Sequence record: PX104380.1
DNA from: a phage
DNA: 64,000 nt
Direction: 5' to 3' (one strand)
Both the position numbers and the translations under genes were made by a program. Shown in pieces: positions 4,252 to 47,529 of the stretch. Below the pieces are notes generated by a model, which worked only from the letters and a program-made list of their open reading frames with translations, searched no databases and was not told where the DNA came from. Position 1 is the first letter of the stretch, and every line of letters begins with the position of its first letter.

Positions 4252-4500
4252 TTACTTCAGTGTTACCACAAAGTGACGAACTGCTTTTCGTGCAGCAGAA
4301 GCCAGAGGCTTAGCATATTTAAGTTCATCTTTTTCCTGAAGCTCAGCAGCTAATGCAGTTTGAGCAGGATTCAGATGTTTGAAATAACGCAGGATTTCAA
4401 GAGCTTCGGCTTCAACATCAATAGATGCGCCATAGTTTTCGTGACCATTATTCCATGCGTTTCGTTGCAGTTCAAGAGCGTGTTGTAATTGTTTAATCAT
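4252..4500 (-). CDS. rIII: rIII lysis-inhibition accessory protein, 82 aa
   Basis: 82 aa, position between 30.x block and gene 31, sequence matches recalled T4 rIII. Confidence 0.8.
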   Translation of the reverse strand: MIKQLQHALELQRNAWNNGHENYGASIDVEAEALEILRYFKHLNPAQTALAAELQEKDELKYAKPLASAARKAVRHFVVTLK

Positions 4501-4639
4501 TTAAAAATTCTCGTTAGAGATTAAAACTCGGTAGTCACGTTCTTCTGAATTTCATCTTCTTTCGACAGATCTCTCAGTTGTAGACTACCACATAGAATTG
4601 TTCGGTTAACTTATTATTCCGACACCCAATTCATATTAT

Positions 4640-19048: not shown

Positions 19049-19078
19049 ATAGTATCACACTACTACCCTACCGTAAAC
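19049..19078 (-). promoter_or_regulatory. early-type promoter
   Basis: GTTTAC-N18-TACTAT plus conserved leader CTATCAACTAC upstream of ORF 18777-19019. Confidence 0.55.
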
Positions 19079-19756: not shown

Positions 19757-19788
19757 GTATAGTACCATGGAAGGACAAGGATGTAAAC
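19757..19788 (-). promoter_or_regulatory. early-type promoter
   Basis: GTTTAC...GGTACTATAC after gene 32 terminator. Confidence 0.55.
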
Positions 19789-23721: not shown

Positions 23722-26700
23722 ATGGCCGAGATTAAAAGAAAGTTCAGAGCAGAAGACGGTCTGGACGCAGGTGGTGATAAAATAATCAACGTAGCTTTAG
23801 CTGATCGTACCGTAGGAACTGACGGTGTTAACGTTGATTACTTAATTCAAGAAAACACAGTTCAGCAATATGATCCAACTCGTGGATATTTAAAAGATTT
23901 TGTAATCATTTATGATAACCGCTTTTGGGCTGCTATAAATGATATTCCAAAACCAGCAGGAGCTTTTAATAGCGTACGATGGAGAGCGTTACGTACTGAT
24001 GCTAACTGGATTACGGTTTCATCTGGTTCATATCAATTAAAATCTGGTGAAGCTATTTCGGTTAACACCGCAGCTGGTAATGATATTACATTTACTTTAC
24101 CATCTACCCCAATTGATGGTGATACTATCGTTCTCCAAGATATTGGAGGAAAACCAGGAGTTAACCAAGTTTTAATTGTAGCTCCGGTGCAAAGTATTGT
24201 AAACTTCAGAGGTCAACAAGTACGTTCAGTACTAATGACTCATCCAAAATCGCAGATAGTTTTAATTTTTAGTAATCGTCTGTGGCAAATGTATGTTGCT
24301 GATTATAGTAGAGAAGCTGTAGTTGTAACGCCTGCGAGTCTCTATCAGGCGCAATCAAACGATTTTATCGTACGTAGATTTACTTCTGCTTCAGCAATTA
24401 ATATTAAACTTCCTAGATTTGCTAATCATGGGGATATTATTAATTTTGTTGATTTAGATAAATTAAATCCGTTATATCATACTATCGTTACTACATACGA
24501 TGAAACGACTTCAGTACAAGAAGTTGGAACTCATTCCATTGAAGGCCGTACAACGATTGACGGTTTCTTAATGTTTGATGATAATGAGAAATTGTGGAGA
24601 TTATTTGACGGGGATAGTAAAGCACGTTTACGCATTATAATAACTAATTCTAATATTCGTCCAAACGAAGAAGTTATGGTATTTGGTGCGAATAACGGAA
24701 CAACTCAAACAATTGAGCTTCAGCTTCCAACTAATATTTCTGTTGGTGATACTGTTAAAATTTCCATGAATTACATGAGAAAAGGACAAACAGTTAAAAT
24801 CAAAGCTGCCGGTGAAGATAAAATTGCTTCTTCAGTTCAATTGCTGCAATTCCCAAAACGTTCAGAATATCCGCCTGAAACTAAATGGGTGACTGTCCAA
24901 GAATTAGTTTTTAACGGTGAAACTAATTATGTTCCAGTTTTACAGCTTGCTTATATAGAAGATTCTGATGGAAAATACTGGGTTGTACAGCAAAACGTTC
25001 CAACTGTAGAAAGAGTAGATTCTTTAAATGATTCTACTAGAGCAAGATTAGGCGTAATTGCTTTAGCTACACAGGCTCAAGCTAATGTCGATTTAGAAAA
25101 TTCTCCACAAAAAGAATTAGCAATTACTCCAGAAACATTAGCTAACCGTACTGCTACAGAAACTCGTAGAGGTATCGCAAGAATAGCAACTACTGCTCAA
25201 GTGAATCAGAACACCACATTCTCTTTTGCAGATGATATTATCATCACTCCTAAAAAGCTGAATGAAAGAACTGCTACAGAAACTCGTAGAGGCGTCGCTG
25301 AAATTGCTACACAGCAAGAAACTAATGCAGGAACCGATGATACTACAATCATCACTCCTAAAAAACTTCAAGCTCGCCAAGGTTCTGAATCATTATCTGG
25401 TATTGTAACTTTTGTATCTACTGCAGGTGCTACTCCAGCTTCTAGCCGTGAATTAAATGGTACGAATGTTTATAATAAAAACACTAATAACTTGGTTGTT
25501 TCGCCTAAAGCTTTGGATCAGTATAAAGCTACTCCAACGCAACAAGGTGCAGTAATTTTAGCAGTTGAAAGTGAAGTAATTGCTGGACAAAGCCAAGAAG
25601 GATGGGCAAATGCTGTTGTAACGCCAGAAACGTTACATAAAAAGACATCAACTGATGGAAGAATAGGATTAATTGAAATTGCTACGCAAAATGAAGTTAA
25701 TACAGGAACTGATTATACTCGTGCAGTCACTCCTAAAACTTTAAATGACCGTAGAGCAACTGAAAGTTTAAGTGGTATAGCTGAAATTGCTACACAAGTT
25801 GAATTCGACGCAGGCGTCGACGATACTCGTATCTCTACACCATTAAAAATTAAAACCAGATTTAATAGTACTGATCGTACTTCTGTTGTTGCTCTATCTG
25901 GATTAGTTGAATCAGGAACTCTCTGGGACCATTATACCCTTAATATTCTTGAAGCAAATGAGACGCAACGTGGTACACTTCGTGTAGCTACACAGGTCGA
26001 AGCTGCTGCAGGAAAATTAGATAATGTTTTAATAACTCCTAAAAAGCTTTTAGGTACTAAATCTACTGAAGCACAAGAAGGTGTTATTAAAGTTGCAACT
26101 CAGTCTGAAACTGTGACTGGAACGTCAGCAAATACTGCTGTATCTCCAAAAAATTTAAAATGGATTGTGCAGAGTGAACCTACCTGGGCAGCTACTACTG
26201 CAGTAAGAGGCTTTGTTAAAACTTCATCTGGTTCAATTACATTTGTCGGTAATGATACAGTCGGTTCTACCCAAGATTTAGAACTGTATGAGAAAAATAG
26301 TTATGCAGTATCACCATATGAATTAAACCGTGTATTAGCAAATTATTTGCCATTAAAAGCAAAAGCTGCAGATAGTAATTTATTGGATGGTCTAGATTCA
26401 TCTCAGTTCATTCGTAGGGATATTGCGCAGACGGTTAATGGTTCACTAACCTTAACTCAACAAACGAATCTGAGTGCCCCTCTTGTATCATCTAGTACTG
26501 CTACGTTTGGTGGTTCAGTTACAGCAAATAGTGTACTAACAATTTCTAATACTGGAACAGCAACTCGATTGATTTTTGAGAAAGGACCTCAAACTGGAAC
26601 AAACCCAGCCCAAACGATGACTGTTAGAGTGTGGGGAAATCAATTTAGTGGGGAATCAGATACAACACGTTCTACCGTATTTGAAGTTAGTGATGAAACA

Positions 26701-36343: not shown

Positions 36344-36979
36344 TCACAGTTCAGATGCTACAGTGATTACTGCTTCAATGTTTTCTGCCGAGCGTTTAAT
36401 GTCAAGATAAACATTACCGTTTTTAGCGATTTTACAAGACATTCCGATATCAGTAAATTTCTGAATATGATGTTCCATCATTTTGTATCCAAAAATTCGC
36501 ATATTTCCATTGTTGTTAATTTCAAAATTACGAATTCCGTGAGTGCGTTTTTCTAAAATAGCGAGATAGTTACTGCGATAAGTTTCAACCTTTTTAAGAA
36601 CAAATCCATTTTCATCTAAAAGTTTTAACATGAGGTCTTTATCTTCTTCCATATCAGAAGTAATCTCACGAGCTTTACGAGTTGCTCGTTTTTTCAGTAG
36701 TTCCGGAGCATTTTCCTGTGCGTATAAAGTTGCTGCATTTGAAATAATATCCTGGGCTTCACCTGTAATGATTAATCCATCACCAGATTTCTCCACCAGG
36801 CCTTTTTTAATCAATACCCCAATATTACTATTAACTACTGCGTTACCTAAATCTGGATGCACCCCACGAACTTCTGCGGCTGTAATGAAATCTTTCTTAG
36901 CAATGGTAATTAAAATCGCAGCAGTTTTTTCATTCAGAACATCGTTAGAAGCTTTGATGATGTAAGTTACTTTAGACAT
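36344..36979 (-). CDS. motA: MotA middle-transcription activator, 211 aa
   Basis: 211 aa, MSKVTYIIKASNDVLNEKTAAILITIAKKDF...; early-type promoter upstream. Confidence 0.9.
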   Translation of the reverse strand: MSKVTYIIKASNDVLNEKTAAILITIAKKDFITAAEVRGVHPDLGNAVVNSNIGVLIKKGLVEKSGDGLIITGEAQDIISNAATLYAQENAPELLKKRATRKAREITSDMEEDKDLMLKLLDENGFVLKKVETYRSNYLAILEKRTHGIRNFEINNNGNMRIFGYKMMEHHIQKFTDIGMSCKIAKNGNVYLDIKRSAENIEAVITVASEL

Positions 36980-37017
36980 TTTCTAATCTCCGTAATTCTG
37001 TATCAGTAGTTGATAGT

Positions 37018-37050
37018 TGTATAGTACCACAGTATGCTTTGGTTGTAAAC
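37018..37050 (-). promoter_or_regulatory. early-type promoter upstream of motA
   Basis: GTTTAC-N18-TACTAT with A/T-rich upstream tract and conserved leader. Confidence 0.6.
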
Positions 37051-37070
37051 CGTTTTATGAAAAAAATTTT

Positions 37071-37100
37071 AAAATAAAAAGGGAGAGCCTCGGCTCTCCC
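37071..37100 (-). terminator. rho-independent terminator upstream of motA promoter
   Basis: Minus sense GGGAGAGCCGAGGCUCUCCC followed by UUUUUAUUUU. Confidence 0.65.
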
Positions 37101-37105
37101 TAAAA

Positions 37106-37255
37106 TTACTGCATGACTGTGATAACTGTCATGATAACACGTTGAATTCCGAACGCAAGAAGACCTCCTGCTACGGCTGGAACAACACCTAAACCCGCCA
37201 GTAAAATGCTACCGGATACTAATGCAGCGCTTGTAATACCAATGAATGGACTCAT
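37106..37255 (-). CDS. small hydrophobic membrane protein, 49 aa
   Basis: MSPFIGITSAALVSGSILLAGLGVVPAVAGGLLAFGIQRVIMTVITVMQ; ATG overlaps gp52 stop (ATGA); below track cutoff. Confidence 0.4.
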   Translation of the reverse strand: MSPFIGITSAALVSGSILLAGLGVVPAVAGGLLAFGIQRVIMTVITVMQ

Positions 37256-38580
37256 TTGATTTCCTCTAAATCTTTAGTGTATTCTGTAACTACATCAGTA
37301 GTTTTCCAATATTCGTTTTCTTCTTTTTTAGCTTTAGCTTCTTCAGCAAGTTTCTTTGCTTCGTCGGAAGTCATATGAAAAATATTCATTCCGACTAGTT
37401 TATCGACATAAGAAGAATACATCTCAATTTTAGAAAGTTCTTCGGTCAGTTCTTTGCGAGTTTTACCCTGTACAACAATTTCACCTGAAATTACTTTCTT
37501 AATGAAATGCGCCTTGGCAAAGGCTAAACGAAAAGCTGACTCAGTTTCTTTGATTTTGTTATCAATTCGTTTTTGGACATAAGTTTTACGAACTTCAACG
37601 AAGTCTTTGATTAAATCAACTACGTTATCGTAAACTTGTAGCTTTCCTTTCTCATTAATAACGGTAATATTTTGGGAACGACGCTCAATCAACCCAAAGT
37701 CTTTCATAATTTTTGCATGGCGTTCTTCTTCGTTATCGCTCAAAGAATATTCTTTGCGGAATTTAACTTTGAAGCCAAAACCATGCTCACCACAAGCATC
37801 ATCCCATGTAATGAAGCCTTTATCTTCAAGTGGATCTAAAATTTTGCTCACATAAGTTTCACGATCATACTTATACGGAATCTCAGTGATATGCATTTGC
37901 GTTCGTGAAGTAAACTTATATGTTCCACGAATTTCATATTGACCGTCAATCTCAACGACTTCACCACGAAATTCTGGGAATTCTACCTTCGGTTTAGTTA
38001 CTTTCTTTCCTTGAAGAGCTTGCAGTACAGCTTTCTTGACAGAAGAAACACTATGAGGAAGAATGTAAGTTGCATAACCAGTTGCAATACCGGAAACACC
38101 ATTAAGAAGAACAGTAGGAATAATAGGCAAATAGAAAGCAGGCGGAATGTGTTCTTTATCTTGATGTACCGGAGCATATTCAGTATCTTTATATACGTTA
38201 TAGAAATTTTTACTTACACGAGCAAAAATATAACGACTTGCTGCTGCTTTTTGAACGGTACGAGAACCAAAGTTTCCTTGACCATCTAACAAAGGAAAGT
38301 TATTATTCCAAGTGTTAGCCATCAAAGCCCCCGCATCTTGTGCAGAGTTTTCACCATGATGATATCCAAGGTCCGCTACACCACCTGCAATAGAAGCGAG
38401 TTTGTGAAACTTATCTTTATTTCCTCGTGCCAAATCAAGAGCTCGAGCAATAACAAATCGTTGAACTGGCTTAAATCCGTCAATCATATTTGGAATGGCA
38501 CGATTTTCAACCGTGTACATAGCATAAGCCAATGCTTCATTATCAATGATACTTTTTAAATCGCGATTATTCAGTTGCAT
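37252..38580 (-). CDS. 52: DNA topoisomerase II medium subunit gp52 (GyrA-like), 442 aa
   Basis: 442 aa; GyrA-type catalytic region (ASRYIFARV). Confidence 0.9.
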   Translation of the reverse strand: MQLNNRDLKSIIDNEALAYAMYTVENRAIPNMIDGFKPVQRFVIARALDLARGNKDKFHKLASIAGGVADLGYHHGENSAQDAGALMANTWNNNFPLLDGQGNFGSRTVQKAAASRYIFARVSKNFYNVYKDTEYAPVHQDKEHIPPAFYLPIIPTVLLNGVSGIATGYATYILPHSVSSVKKAVLQALQGKKVTKPKVEFPEFRGEVVEIDGQYEIRGTYKFTSRTQMHITEIPYKYDRETYVSKILDPLEDKGFITWDDACGEHGFGFKVKFRKEYSLSDNEEERHAKIMKDFGLIERRSQNITVINEKGKLQVYDNVVDLIKDFVEVRKTYVQKRIDNKIKETESAFRLAFAKAHFIKKVISGEIVVQGKTRKELTEELSKIEMYSSYVDKLVGMNIFHMTSDEAKKLAEEAKAKKEENEYWKTTDVVTEYTKDLEEIK

Positions 38581-38584
38581 AAAT

Positions 38585-38725
38585 TTACCATACTAGTGAA
38601 TGTAGTGCCATAATAACATCAGAAATGAAAAGCACGACTTGAATTAATCCGAACATTACTCCATAATATAGTGCTACTAATAAAGTAGCAAGGGCTAATG
38701 AATAGCCCAAGATTTTCTTAATCAT
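38585..38725 (-). CDS. small hydrophobic protein, 46 aa
   Basis: MIKKILGYSLALATLLVALYYGVMFGLIQVVLFISDVIMALHSLVW; below track cutoff. Confidence 0.35.
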   Translation of the reverse strand: MIKKILGYSLALATLLVALYYGVMFGLIQVVLFISDVIMALHSLVW

Positions 38726-38876
38726 TAGTAGATAACAACACAAATGTTAAATATGCACACATACCCTGAGCTAAAGCTTGCGAAAACACACTGCTGGCAT
38801 CAATACAGATAGTTAAAACACATGCTACTATCCAACAAATAAATGAAATAACTCCTAATAATTTTGCAATATTCAT
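38718..38876 (-). CDS. small hydrophobic Cys-rich membrane protein, 52 aa
   Basis: MNIAKLLGVISFICWIVACVLTICIDASS...; below track cutoff. Confidence 0.35.
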   Translation of the reverse strand: MNIAKLLGVISFICWIVACVLTICIDASSVFSQALAQGMCAYLTFVLLSTND

Positions 38877-38883
38877 ATTTTCC

Positions 38884-38997
38884 TCACATAAATCCAAAGT
38901 AAACGTTTAATACATCAATCATTAAAACGATTGGGAATATACTCAAAACTACTAGTATTATAACTACATTCCATATAGCTTTAACAATCTTTTTCAT
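38884..38997 (-). CDS. small membrane protein, 37 aa
   Basis: ATG at 38997 after GGAGGAACAG; MKKIVKAIWNVVIILVVLSIFPIVLMIDVLNVYFGFM; track extension covers promoter. Confidence 0.4.
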   Translation of the reverse strand: MKKIVKAIWNVVIILVVLSIFPIVLMIDVLNVYFGFM

Positions 38998-39023
38998 TTT
39001 CTGTTCCTCCGTAGTTGATAGGG

Positions 39024-39055
39024 TAATAGTACCACGGAAGAACAGTCTTGTAAAC
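39024..39055 (-). promoter_or_regulatory. early-type promoter
   Basis: GTTTAC...GGTACTATTACCC; leader plus RBS nearly identical to cassette at 39530. Confidence 0.55.
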
Positions 39056-39062
39056 AGCTTTT

Positions 39063-39161
39063 TTAAAAATATTCGTAATAAATGTGAATACCAACTACTA
39101 CCGCTGAAACCTGTGCAACCCACCACGCACAAGCAATAAGTACAGAATTCAAAATTTTCAT
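39063..39161 (-). CDS. small hydrophobic peptide, 32 aa
   Basis: MKILNSVLIACAWWVAQVSAVVVGIHIYYEYF; overlapping ATG/TGA with next mini-ORF. Confidence 0.3.
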   Translation of the reverse strand: MKILNSVLIACAWWVAQVSAVVVGIHIYYEYF

Positions 39162-39244
39162 AATAACCTCATTACAAAAGTAAATGTTAAACAAATTACT
39201 GGAATACTAATTAACCAAACAAAACACCACCATAGTGAACTCAT
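39158..39244 (-). CDS. small hydrophobic peptide, 28 aa
   Basis: MSSLWWCFVWLISIPVICLTFTFVMRLL; start overlaps stop of upstream ORF. Confidence 0.3.
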   Translation of the reverse strand: MSSLWWCFVWLISIPVICLTFTFVMRLL

Positions 39245-39504
39245 AGCTCAATCTCAGCGATTTTCATTTCATTACTATTAATAGCCGCTTTAAGACTATC
39301 TGAAAGAATTACATTCCAATGGTCATTCATATGACCATTAACTAAGCGTGTAATTTCTTCGGGAGTTGAAAAATAAGGCTGATCAGACTCCCAATGCGAT
39401 AGTCCCAAGCGAGTATAAATCATACCTTCATCATCGCTAGAATATTCAACTGACACAAACTCATCAGTTATTTTATGTTTAGCGTAATAAAATTTAAATT
39501 TCAT
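39241..39504 (-). CDS. hypothetical protein, 87 aa
   Basis: ORF track; early-type promoter upstream. Confidence 0.5.
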   Translation of the reverse strand: MKFKFYYAKHKITDEFVSVEYSSDDEGMIYTRLGLSHWESDQPYFSTPEEITRLVNGHMNDHWNVILSDSLKAAINSNEMKIAEIEL

Positions 39505-39529
39505 TTTCTGTTCCTCCGTAGTTGATAGT

Positions 39530-39562
39530 TATATAGTACCACGGTCCTTGTGGTGTGTAAAC
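39530..39562 (-). promoter_or_regulatory. early-type promoter
   Basis: GTTTAC...GGTACTATATAAC; near-identical to cassette at 39024. Confidence 0.55.
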
Positions 39563-39580
39563 CATTTTGTGAAAAATTTT

Positions 39581-40138
39581 TTAAATGGAAAGATACCATC
39601 CGTTGTAGTTGCTTTTTCGCACTACCTTACGAAGGTCTTCTCTGTCACCGATGAACTTCGGAGTGTACTGGATGACACCTGGATGAATTTCTTTAGTGTT
39701 GAATATAATTATACAGTCCGCGACTTGATGATTTAGAATGGGCCCTAGATTTATTCCAGAACCATATGGATACTCTCCGCTGCATCCCGTTGTTACCGAA
39801 ATCCAACGCGAGTCAGTTTGATGTGTCTTAACTTCTACACGGAGCCCACAGTATTTTGGATGTGCTAAAACATCCCATGCATACGTGTACGGATCATCGG
39901 CATCTTCTTGACCTTTGTTAACATATCCACTCAACCAATCTGCTACCACATACTCGGCATACACAGCAATACGGCATCTTTCGATAACTTCTGCCTTATC
40001 CTGATTTGGGTTTTGTTTTAAAGAGTATCTTGCAGTATCAGCAATTTTGGCCTTCATTTCACTAGTCAAGTCACTGTTAGATAGTGTAAATGACGGAATC
40101 TGAAATAGTCTCTGCAAACCCGGATTCGTTTTCTGCAT
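39581..40138 (-). CDS. denB: endonuclease IV-like protein, 185 aa
   Basis: 185 aa, position upstream of rIIB; assignment by size and synteny. Confidence 0.7.
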   Translation of the reverse strand: MQKTNPGLQRLFQIPSFTLSNSDLTSEMKAKIADTARYSLKQNPNQDKAEVIERCRIAVYAEYVVADWLSGYVNKGQEDADDPYTYAWDVLAHPKYCGLRVEVKTHQTDSRWISVTTGCSGEYPYGSGINLGPILNHQVADCIIIFNTKEIHPGVIQYTPKFIGDREDLRKVVRKSNYNGWYLSI

Positions 40139-40175
40139 TTAAACTTTCCTTTATGTCGGAATCATAATTTCTCTT

Positions 40176-40208
40176 AAAACAAAAGGGCCGAAGCCCTTAT
40201 TTTATTTG
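40176..40208. terminator. bidirectional terminator-like hairpin between denB and upstream ORF
   Basis: GGGCCGAAGCCC hairpin (UUCG loop on minus sense) flanked by A-run on one side and T-run on the other. Confidence 0.45.
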
Positions 40209-40396
40209 AATTGTGCAATTCTTTTTTCTAAACAATCTGCGTAAGATTTCATTGAGATGAACTGTGAAAGCAGTAATTCTTGCTCAACTGCATTAACTGT
40301 TAGAAACTTTGCGCTTTCTAAAAATTTACTCAGTGCATTAATTTTGAGCATTAATTGATCGTATTCTTCTTTTACTCGTGCTTGATAACCTAACAT
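40202..40396 (-). CDS. hypothetical protein, 64 aa
   Basis: ORF track; flanked by tetraloop hairpins. Confidence 0.45.
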   Translation of the reverse strand: MLGYQARVKEEYDQLMLKINALSKFLESAKFLTVNAVEQELLLSQFISMKSYADCLEKRIAQFK

Positions 40397-40428
40397 AATT
40401 TTCCTTAATGTGATAAGGGACGAAGCCC

Positions 40429-41367
40429 TTATTTAAATTGTTCTGTAACGTCTTCAACTACTTCGTATTGGCAGGTACGCATTTTAGCATCGTTGTAATC
40501 AATCGGAATTGATACTACATCACGCGGATGTACTTTAACTTTTACAACTCGGCTAGTTGAACTGCCAAAGTGACGAATATAAGATTTAGAACACACATGC
40601 AGACCGCGAGAACAAGTTTGTGTATCATCGTCATTCACACGAGTACGTGGCATTTTAACTACTTTACCAGGGCTGTTATCAAAAGTATTTGAATGACAGT
40701 CAAAGTAATTGCTGCGAACTACTTTCCAAGCATAGAAGTAACCGTCTTCTGTAATTTCAATATCGTTTGCTACCAAGAAATCAAAGAGTCGAGATACCGC
40801 TTTTTGGCTTGGGTTTTCCAGCAGATTTTCCAAGAACGGAAAATAGAATTCAAAGTTTTCGCCTTTTTCCATCGAGTCAAGAATACGATCAACCAAACCA
40901 GACCGTAATTCGATATTTTGATAGAACAAGCTTCCACCTTCAATTCGAACATCGCCGGAAATATATTTTTCAACAGCGCGGCGAACATTAATTTTTTGCG
41001 CAGCTTCTTCCAGCTTATCTGCTACAAGCAGATTAAGAATTTCCTGGAAGTTTGAATGAGTATTAGGAGTTGCGTTATAAGTTACACCGTCAACAGTAAT
41101 TGAAATGAATTTTTTAGATGCATTCCAAATAATGTCAGATTTAGCAACTGGAGCAATAGCTACATCACTCTTAACTTCAACTGTAATGTCACCGCTAATA
41201 GTAACTTTGGAGCGTTTAGCTTCTTCAGCATTTTTCAAAACACGACGGATTGTGTCAACCGATACACCTTGCCAATCAGCCAATTCCTGTTGGGTGTAAT
41301 TACCACTTGAATACAGCTTAACAATTTCAGCTTGTTCGTTTTTGGTCAGGCATTTAATATTGTACAT
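40429..41367 (-). CDS. rIIB: rIIB, 312 aa
   Basis: 312 aa, immediately downstream of rIIA; N-terminal HTH-like region (YTQQELADWQGVSVDTIRR). Confidence 0.9.
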   Translation of the reverse strand: MYNIKCLTKNEQAEIVKLYSSGNYTQQELADWQGVSVDTIRRVLKNAEEAKRSKVTISGDITVEVKSDVAIAPVAKSDIIWNASKKFISITVDGVTYNATPNTHSNFQEILNLLVADKLEEAAQKINVRRAVEKYISGDVRIEGGSLFYQNIELRSGLVDRILDSMEKGENFEFYFPFLENLLENPSQKAVSRLFDFLVANDIEITEDGYFYAWKVVRSNYFDCHSNTFDNSPGKVVKMPRTRVNDDDTQTCSRGLHVCSKSYIRHFGSSTSRVVKVKVHPRDVVSIPIDYNDAKMRTCQYEVVEDVTEQFK

Positions 41368-41378
41368 AATTTTCCTTA

Positions 41379-43556
41379 TTAGGCCGCAAGGGCCTTCATA
41401 GTTTTAGCGATTTGAGAAACTTCATCATCACTTAAAGAGTTGCGATATCCGATGAAGTCGGAAACAATACGGAATTTCTTGGTAAACTCAGCAACCATTT
41501 TATCACTGTTTTTTGAAGCATTATTTGATAATACATCAAAAAGATTAGTTACTGTCCAGATGTCATGACCGATGGTATCTTTTCCACCATTAAAATACAC
41601 ACCCTGCAATGAACTAACCATATTAGCGAGTCGTGTATATTCTTCAGAAACTTCATCTGTACTGAAGTACTTCATCATAAAATCTAGTTCAGGATGCTTG
41701 ATAATTTTATCAATATATCGTTGAGCTGAACTTGAATAACCTACATACTTATCATAATCTACATCATCAAAAGCATCTACATATAAATCACGTAAAGCTT
41801 CAAAAATACATTGGCACTGACCAAGCTCTTTTACCTTTTTCTGCAAAAGCGGACGAATAACATAAAATTCATTAATGCCAATAAGATTAGCCATACGAAT
41901 CAAAATATTCATAGATGGATGACAAAGCGATGTAGTACCATCCATAGAGAAAATATCAGAACGATGCATATACGCTACATACCCAGTAATTTCATCTGCT
42001 TCTGATGTGAGCGTAAATAATTCCTCTTTTTCCCAGCGCCCGTCTTTAATTTCAAACTTAAATGCTGTAGCAGCTTTAGGACGAGGAGCTTTACTTTTAA
42101 CTACCTTTGGAATATAGCTTTTAACTAAAGCTTCAATTTCTGACAAATAATGAATGTTAACTTCATCACTTTCAAACATCGCCATAATATCAGGAAGCAA
42201 ATCAATCTGCGATTCTACTTCTGGATTAATAAACAGAAGGCGTTCGTTGTGATGAATATTTAAGGTGTTATTAAATTCACTATCATCTAACGCATGTGCT
42301 AATCCACGGACAATATTAACACGATTTTTAATATTATCAATAACGATATTAATTTTTGTTGCATTAATACCAAACAGACGATAACTTGATGCAACGGCTG
42401 AAGTTTCATGACTTTGCTTAATGCGTTTCAGTCGAGGGTCAAGATTTACTTCATACACAACTCCTGCATTGCATAACTTACTATCAGGTTCAAACATACT
42501 CTGCATCTTTTTATATGACAGATTTTTAGTCGTGAATTTGACTGAATTACTAATCATATAATCTCGAGCAGAATACCCCATCTTCATCAATTCACGATAT
42601 GTGTGACGAGGAGATGTAGATTCTTTAAATCGTTTTACATCTTCATTAAATGCTTTCTCACTGAGTTCTTTAACTCGTTCAATAATATTTTTACGAGTAC
42701 GATCATCCAGTGAAAGAGCCTCACGAGATGGAGCAATATCAAGTGAACCCATTGGAAACTTAATGTAATTCACTTCATTGCGAATGCTTAGCCAGTTACG
42801 GTCTCTAATAACACCGTCGATAGGATAAACAATACCGCCATAGATAGCATATAATCCGCCGCGATCTGGCCAGTATCTTTCTGGATTTACACCGTAATAA
42901 TCATCAAAATCCGGAAAATAATCAATTTCGCGGTCAAGACCGTTAATGATAGCCAAATCTTTGAACGGTCGCATGATATAAGAAACTTCATAAGCAAAGT
43001 TTCTAAAGTCTTTTTCTTCAACTGGAACTACGATTTCAATACCAGTTTTATCATCTGGATCCATTTCTTTTACGAATGTAGGTTTAATCTGTGGACCATC
43101 ACCATCCATGTAAGCTACATAACCACGAATTTCACCTTTATGATACGAAGTAATACTAAACGTATCAGTATAACTAAACGGAGATTTAGAACCTAAACCA
43201 AATCCACCAATGAAATCATTAGATTCAGCTTTAGATGAACTGAAATATGAATTATACAGACCAGGAGAATTATCATCACCCTGAATATCAAAATCACTCA
43301 TACCCGGACCAAAATCTCGACAAACAAATCGTGGATCTAAACGTCCAGGAACTTGAATGATAAATTTTTCAGGATTTCCATTGAGAGAATGGGCATCAAT
43401 CATGTTGGTAATCAATTCACGGACTACTGCGCGAATCTTGTTTGTATACAAATCAGACGACAGAATTTTAAATACTTTAGGAGATGCTGTGATGCTAAAT
43501 GCTTTTGATTTAGAACCATTGCCAAGAATTGTTTCTTTTTCAGTGGTGATAATCAT
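41379..43556 (-). CDS. rIIA: rIIA, 725 aa
   Basis: 725 aa; N-terminal GHKL-ATPase-like motifs ([10 protein letters not shown]..., GFGLGSKS). Confidence 0.9.
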
Positions 43557-47432: not shown

Positions 47433-47529
47433 TTTATTCTCCAAGTTGTTTTCTGTATCAGTAGTTGATATTGATATAGTACCATAATCAACTACTGATG
47501 TATATAGTTTTATGAAAAAATTTTAAACT

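Follow-up and report, generated by a model that had tools for sequence, protein, structure and literature searches.

A stretch of 64,000 nucleotides of phage DNA (sequence record PX104380.1; referred to throughout as the window) carries two different small open reading frames (ORFs) that begin with nearly the same promoter, ribosome-binding site (RBS) and first two codons, roughly 500 bp apart. A preliminary description of the DNA, prepared from its letters alone, had read this as recent duplication or recombination between promoter cassettes, and as a plausible means of shuffling small accessory genes. The locus thus raises the question of how two unlike ORFs came to be preceded by such similar sequence, and what this similarity has to do with the coming and going of the genes around them.

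The region is 95–97% identical to many Tequatrovirus genomes and its genes follow one another as they do in T4 (52, 52.1, ac, ndd.x, denB, rIIB, rIIA); on account of these two features we assign the window to a T4-like phage of the genus Tequatrovirus. Read against the T4 annotation, all genes here lie on the minus strand. Gene 52 (37252–38580) is followed by 52.1 and ac, and these by an ndd.4-like ORF (38884–38997; phrog_3098) that encodes a predicted membrane protein of 37 residues, the corresponding Ndd.4 being annotated in phages PST and Sf23. Further on lie homologues of the T4 genes ndd.5 (39063–39161, 32 residues, with its ATG at 39161; phrog_5011) and ndd.6 (39158–39244, 28 residues; phrog_8851), and then ORF87 (39241–39504), an 87-residue homologue of the ORF annotated as ORF268 in PST (phrog_2390, E=1e-46), whose stop codon overlaps the start of ndd.6 in the sequence ATGA. 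Next comes denB (39581–40138), with denB.1, rIIB and rIIA beyond it. The family phrog_2390 is one of unknown function, as are the PHROGs of the other small ORFs, and a Pfam search of the small ORFs at the locus returned no match for any of them. ORF87 is absent from T4 except for a remnant of 8 codons. In what follows, site A denotes the promoter before ORF87 (the second copy in the preliminary description), site B that before the ndd.4-like ORF (the first copy), and site C a third promoter at 37021–37050. From this arrangement, site A would drive an ORF87-ndd.6-ndd.5 unit and site B the ndd.4-like ORF.

The similarity between the two cassettes is real and precisely delimited. The segments 38992–39037 and 39499–39544 constitute a direct repeat of 46 nt with 91% identity and a start-to-start spacing of 507, within which 30 nt (38992–39021 and 39499–39528) are identical and read CTATCAACTACGGAGGAACAGAAAATGAAA on the minus, that is coding, strand; the limits originally proposed, 38991–39055 and 39501–39562, were right to within 1–2 nt. 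In coding orientation both copies share the layout GTTTAC-N18-TACTAT-N4-CTATCAACTACGGAGGAACAGAAA-ATG-AAA. The exact 30-nt segment consists of a core, CTATCAACTAC, directly 3' of the -10 element, a leader with the Shine-Dalgarno sequence, GGAGGAACAGAAA, and the ATG AAA that forms codons 1–2 of the 37-residue and the 87-residue ORF respectively, which bears out the RBS and Met-Lys starts that the preliminary description had seen in both. Only these two copies of the segment occur in the 64 kb at up to 3 mismatches, where 100 shuffles give an expectation of 0.

That the pair stands apart from other promoters of the same kind is evident from a comparison with all cassettes of the pattern GTTTAC-N17/18-TAnnnT. 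There are 20 of these on the minus strand of the window (4.1 are expected for the pattern on both strands together), and when they are aligned in register the site A/site B pair (39562/39055) is the top outlier, with a longest exact run of 30 nt as against 21 nt in the pair that ranks second. Between -10 and +30 the identity of sites A and B is 0.89, compared with a mean of 0.41 (sd 0.10) for the 190 cassette pairs, and the leaders of the remaining 18 early cassettes are very different from the one that sites A and B have in common. The core CTATCAACTAC, which is common to at least 5 cassettes of the window, defines a sub-family TACTAT-N4-CTATCAACTAC with members at 39562, 39055, 37050 and 19078 and related copies near 19788 and 47500; in a self-comparison of the whole window this promoter sub-family accounts for the top two of all repeat families. 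Within it, the closest paralogue of site B is the minus-strand cassette at 19049–19078, which has TACTAT-TACC-CTATCAACTAC and an exact run of 21 nt, and the paralogue of site A is site C, upstream of motA.1 and gene 52 on the minus strand, with the same TACTAT-ACAA-CTATCAACTACTGATAC. Another minus-strand segment, 47451–47527, matches the site C cassette with 78% identity across 77 nt and has the same CTATCAACTACTGATACAGAA leader and TACTAT -10 element; with TATATAC where the GTTTAC -35 is expected, it could be a variant of the sub-family or a decayed member. Repeats of a different kind lie at 25123–26048, where imperfect direct repeats with units of 68 nt and 30 nt appear to keep the reading frame; they are 66–83% identical, are spaced about 110–680 nt apart, and probably reflect peptide motifs that recur within the product of a structural (fibre-like) gene.

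Both cassettes have the appearance of ordinary T4 early promoters, a class that has been reviewed (PMC2988021) and for which a GTTTAC consensus at -36 to -31 has been described (PMC1524935). Site A (39533–39562, minus strand) has its -35 element GTTTAC at 39557–39562 and its -10 element TACTAT at 39533–39538; in site B (39026–39055, minus strand) the same elements lie at 39050–39055 and 39026–39031. In each case the 18-nt spacer ends in TGG, which adjoins TACTAT and supplies the TGn of an extended -10. The -35 GTTTAC is invariant at both sites across 24 genomes; AT-rich, UP-like tracts precede it (TTTAAAAAATTTTTCACAAAATG at about 39563–39590 for site A, ATATTTTTAAAAAAGCT for site B), and both leaders have the Shine-Dalgarno sequence GGAGG 8 nt from the ATG. 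With these elements, their leftward (early) orientation and their orthology to promoters annotated in the T4 record X75802, sites A and B, as predicted promoters, display every sequence-level attribute of the T4 early class. The promoters themselves offer no difference from the T4 class, and what distinguishes the window is the leader allele at site A and the ORF behind it. By analogy with T4 (PMC2988021, PMC1524935), each cassette would still act as a strong early promoter, its leader being unstructured and provided with GGAGG. Folding predicts both leader RNAs to be unstructured, and on this ground we rejected a riboregulator or translational operator shared by the leaders.

The surroundings of the three promoters differ. 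No terminator-like hairpin was found beside site A or site B, and folding of the 78 nt upstream gave z = -2.4 and -1.4 respectively, with weak structures that lie within coding sequence. Site C, in contrast, has directly upstream, at 37080–37101 on the minus strand, a terminator that was recovered in a terminator scan and consists of a 9-bp GC-rich hairpin and a T-run (folding z = -4.5). It therefore presents a full terminator-plus-promoter arrangement for which sites A and B have no equivalent. An Rfam scan of 36800–41500 at E<=1 gave as its sole match a sub-threshold CrcZ on the site C terminator, and none for the repeat. Elsewhere on the minus strand, GC stems with UUCG-type tetraloops (GGGC-UUCG-GCCC) followed by T-runs occur at 40183–40198 and 40415–40430, on the 3' side of denB.1 and rIIB, and near 2.9 kb (2930–2945); in appearance they are typical of the T4 hairpins that act as intrinsic terminators or stabilise RNA.

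The age of the two promoters was approached through related phages. An IMG/VR scan for the site-A-specific spacer yielded 4 contigs, and the annotated phage collection was sampled for comparison; together these provided 24 independent relatives (20 GenBank phages and the 4 IMG/VR contigs) out of roughly 590 matching genomes. Alleles were read from the 24 explicitly fetched loci, and BLAST identity bands, which join the site A and site B pieces lying ~507 bp apart, are not usable as frequencies. Site A is present in 24/24 relatives and site B in all of those with enough downstream sequence. The sequence of the T4D ndd region (X75802) has a promoter with -35 and -10 annotated at both homologous sites, 279 nt apart, and in phage fPS-65 a 'predicted early promoter' is annotated at site A. 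The ORFs at the locus vary among the same phages, T4 being without ORF87.

A recent tandem duplication of the whole promoter/RBS/start cassette, followed by capture of a different ORF, would account for two similar cassettes 507 bp apart in direct orientation, but it sits badly with the presence of both at the same positions in T4 and the sampled relatives. The internal structure of the cassettes argues against it as well: 12 of the 18 spacer positions between -35 and -10 are not shared by sites A and B of the window, the upstream tracts are different too, and the upstream half of site A is closer to site C than to site B. Accordingly, we regard such a duplication as highly improbable. As judged from these alignments, both cassettes appear to be old, with their unusual identity confined to the leader patch. 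The two processes put forward in the preliminary description therefore part company: recent duplication falls, both promoters being orthologous in T4 and its relatives, and recombination survives in the form of mosaic alleles.

These mosaics are found in the leaders. Nucleotide diversity of the leader is 0.020 at site B as against 0.249 at site A. At site B the leader GGAGGAACAGAAA occurs in 19 of the 24 relatives with a B site, whereas at site A the 24 relatives show at least 6 leader alleles, along with 3 upstream types. A long site A leader, TGATACGGATTTGGAGAATAAA, placed after CTATCAACTAC, is found in T4, PYPS2T and KAW1E185; the long leader also exists without the terminal TAC of the core, in T6, D5505, fPS-65 and the 4 IMG/VR contigs, and before an extra ORF in slur02, PST, UFV-AREG1 and RB5. 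Short site A leaders take the form GGAGGAGTAAAA in ESh17, GRNsp7, KNP1, Paracelsus and CHD94UKE2, GGAGGAGCGGAAA in ESH35, JLBYU31 and FT, and AGAGGAACAAAA in Pu-Krd-SF5, each 1–3 changes from the site B leader; a separate donor copy of GGAGGAGCGGAAA was not found within the window. The exact site B leader, GGAGGAACAGAAA, stands at site A in the window and, among the 24 relatives, in Sf23 only. The longest exact run between sites A and B of one genome is 9–12 nt in most, but it reaches 25 nt in UFV-AREG1, 30 nt in both the window and Sf23, and 33 nt in ESH35.

The exchanged pieces are not limited to leaders. The 4-mer TACC, which is of B type, is found at site A in ESH35 and JLBYU31, and the A-type ACAA at site B in ESh17, GRNsp7 and UFV-AREG1. 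Site A of phage FT is a three-part mosaic, in which an A-type upstream flank is followed by the complete 18-nt spacer of site C and then by a short leader; because site C is ~3.6 kb away, this spacer is an unambiguous case of ectopic exchange. The mosaic promoter of FT (at about position 2433, in coding orientation, of the fetched locus L013) precedes ORF87. The leaders are likewise uncoupled from the genes that they precede: the common haplotype of ORF87 (0–13 differences in 264 nt) is found with every leader type, and the leader of the Paracelsus type is followed by either this haplotype or an allele of ORF87 that is only ~65% identical. From this lack of coupling it follows that breakpoints cluster at the -10/core and at the ATG. 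These alignments support the view that sub-segments move between cassettes, with probable boundaries at the -10/4-mer, the CTATCAACTAC core and the ATG. ORF87 itself has at least 3 deeply diverged alleles (91–102 differences in 264 nt), in Paracelsus, CHD94UKE2 and Pu-Krd-SF5; in genomes otherwise ~95% identical, this pattern indicates probable replacement of the whole ORF.

We therefore favor, as the probable explanation of the 30-nt identity, a short non-reciprocal exchange that placed the leader and RBS of site B onto site A, both cassettes being long established. The starting point would be two sigma-70 early promoter cassettes, each with an AT-rich tract, GTTTAC, TGn/TACTAT, a short leader with GGAGG, and an ATG. 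During the recombination-dependent replication of T4, ectopic gene conversion or template switching would let the site B leader/RBS overwrite that of site A in a converted patch of 13–30 nt. The upstream limit of this patch would be set by the core CTATCAACTAC common to both sites, or by the -10 region, and its downstream limit by the AAAATGAAA that both sites also have. Site B is the putative donor because its leader is nearly invariant and that of site A variable. It is from the directly observed sequence relationships, mosaic alleles and indel junctions that we infer the conversion event, its direction from B to A and its enzymology. No rare SNP common to sites A and B within one genome is available as proof of intragenomic transfer. 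Reciprocal excision of a mini-circle with re-integration was rejected as the route, since no long leader is seen at site B, where this cycle would have left one.

The donor need not have been the phage's own site B. As two of the other short leaders occur with ~65%-identical ORF87 alleles, a short leader could be native to an imported ORF87 module; in that case it would have reached site A with, or next to, an ORF87 allele of another Tequatrovirus by homologous recombination in co-infection, and the A/B identity would reflect old paralogy of the cassettes instead of a B-to-A transfer in this lineage. Leaders clearly do move between phages, as the short ones accompany ~65%-identical ORF87 in Paracelsus, CHD94UKE2 and Pu-Krd-SF5, and the Paracelsus-type leader precedes a window-like ORF87 in KNP1, ESh17 and GRNsp7; T4-type phages are, moreover, known to recombine freely in mixed infections (PMC1524935). 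Yet the patch in the window agrees with its own site B at 13/13 diagnostic positions, which none of the other short alleles does, and its ORF87 is the common haplotype that also occurs behind long leaders, with 4–5 differences to KAW1E185 and PYPS2T. The upstream 4-mer and spacer are still of A type, so that an imported tract could have been at most 30 nt long. We consider such an import unlikely, if by no means negligible; it too is recombination at cassette homologies, and differs from conversion by site B in the donor only. Far less credible is that selection for an optimal leader and RBS produced the same 30 nt independently at the two sites. The unstructured leaders with a strong GGAGG at 8-nt spacing, and the extended consensus regions of T4 early promoters (PMC2988021), lend this idea some appeal, but 18 other early cassettes of the window manage with very different leaders, orthologous site A leaders vary widely within otherwise near-identical genomes, and block-wise mosaics, including the 18-nt spacer swap in FT, are unlike convergence by point mutation.

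A more speculative proposal concerns the core. Instead of being just the initial transcribed sequence, CTATCAACTAC might be a preferred crossover point, acting as a nick, pause or site-specific recombination signal. We rate this as improbable; if true, a CTATCAACTAC signal would actively promote patch exchange among members of an early-promoter sub-family 0.5–20 kb apart, and these cassettes would form a semi-autonomous recombination system, not passive homology. The choice between homologous and site-specific recombination was left open by Arbiol et al. (PMC2839356).

The shuffling of small accessory genes suggested in the preliminary description finds support in the presence and absence of ORFs at this locus, with junctions in promoter or RBS/ATG homologies. 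The promoter and RBS/ATG homologies held to have mediated conversion of the site A leader by site B would also have served as crossover points for this gain and loss. In T4, a 237-bp deletion between 8-bp repeats, AAATGAAA, has removed ORF87: its long leader is followed by ATG AAA and then ATC GCT GAG ATT GAA CTA TGA, that is by codons 1–2 of ORF87 and its final 6, and the ATGA overlap with ndd.6 is retained. This remnant, MKIAEIEL, is unannotated (about 4480–4520, plus strand, in the fetched T4 locus L004, between ndd.6 and the site A promoter), and through the ATGA overlap it may still provide translational coupling to ndd.6. In slur02, PST, UFV-AREG1 and RB5 an additional ORF of 68 residues (PST ORF269, phrog_4535) has been placed precisely at the junction of the site A leader with the gene that follows, which in slur02, PST and UFV-AREG1 is ORF87. 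A further indel or replacement lies just upstream of site A: denB is annotated with 477 nt in slur02 (fetched locus L003, 3936–4755), ESh17 (L009, 676–1495), Sf23 (L010, 478–1297) and Paracelsus (L020, 75–894), as against 558 nt in the window and T4, and these four phages have an extra ORF of 330 nt between denB.1 and denB.

The window has itself lost 1131 bp comprising stp, ndd, ndd.1, ndd.2 and ndd.2a/ndd.3. At the junction (38872–38887, minus strand) there is a single copy of a 16-bp repeat spanning RBS and ATG, GTGAGGAAAATATGAA on the coding strand, of which T4 and PYPS2T have two copies (fetched loci L004, 2994–4140, and L002, 1870–3016). Only one of 496 matching records, Shigella phage ESH35, has this junction in common with the window. 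The deletion leaves ac directly behind the ndd.4-like ORF with its RBS intact, and a natural Tequatrovirus that lacks both Ndd, which disrupts the nucleoid, and Stp, which activates PrrC, may be biologically interesting. The homogenized cassettes would now form a 30-bp direct repeat that favors excision of the 507-bp ORF87-ndd.6-ndd.5 block; a full deletion between A and B would fuse site A to ndd.4, and no such product turned up in the best 30 of 578 records matched. Studies of the T4 rII region have made deletions between short direct repeats familiar. The 1131-bp and 237-bp junctions, with their 16-bp and 8-bp repeats, resemble the deletions of this type by Albertini et al. (1982), as these are cited in PMC4122927, but the repeats here are not random, being the conserved RBS/ATG ends of gene cassettes. 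For this reason the products of deletion stay correctly expressed, as in the case of ac behind the ndd.4-like ORF.

Among known systems, the closest are the promoter-early stem-loop (PeSL) cassettes of T4-type phages (Arbiol et al. 2010, PMC2839356; Comeau, Arbiol & Krisch 2014, PMC4122927), in which PST and T4 early promoters have the consensus TTTACW-N17-TAYWAT. Sites A and B share with them the AT-rich tract, the sigma-70-like early promoter, the Shine-Dalgarno sequence and the start codon at the 3' end, and also the setting in a hyperplastic region beside ORF indels, as seen in the absence of ORF87 from T4, the extra 68-residue ORF, the ~65% ORF87 alleles and the loss of ndd from the window. 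Experiments located the crossovers of mini-circles in the part of the PeSL that runs from the -10 to the SD/ATG (PMC2839356), and sequence comparison places the exchange boundaries at sites A and B in the same interval. Unlike typical PeSLs, sites A and B are without a convincing stem-loop, such as site C has, and are at best 'half' PeSLs; since published accounts call the stem-loops of PST and T4 variable (PMC4122927), a weak or decayed hairpin may still exist there. A second difference is that the patch in the window is non-reciprocal and 13–30 nt long, in contrast to the reciprocal excision and integration of mini-circles. A more distant likeness is to the 'morons' of lambdoid phages, which are insertions of promoter, ORF and terminator (PMC1524935). 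These are comparable as small accessory ORFs with their own promoter that are present or absent among close relatives, but the T4-type ORFs match the genome in composition and are exchanged via homology of regulatory cassettes, not by illegitimate insertion (PMC1524935).

PeSL-mediated shuffling as a mechanism, and this locus as an instance of it, are already in the literature (PMC2839356; PMC4122927), where Fig. 6A of the latter paper illustrates PeSL exchange with T4 ndd.4/.5 versus PST ORF268/269. What is new here is descriptive: the exchange of sub-segments among three promoters in natural populations, together with a rare stp-ndd deletion, likewise natural, that was made at an RBS/ATG repeat. 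The locus offers a natural example, at the nucleotide level, of promoter and RBS/start cassettes as portable homology in T4-type phages, by which regulatory segments are converted and small early genes inserted, deleted and swapped without breaking expression. For annotation, it means that identical leaders do not imply gene duplication; for phage engineering, that regulatory repeats of 16–30 bp are prone to deletion. The same considerations are relevant to how pangenome variation is read in therapeutic Tequatroviruses.
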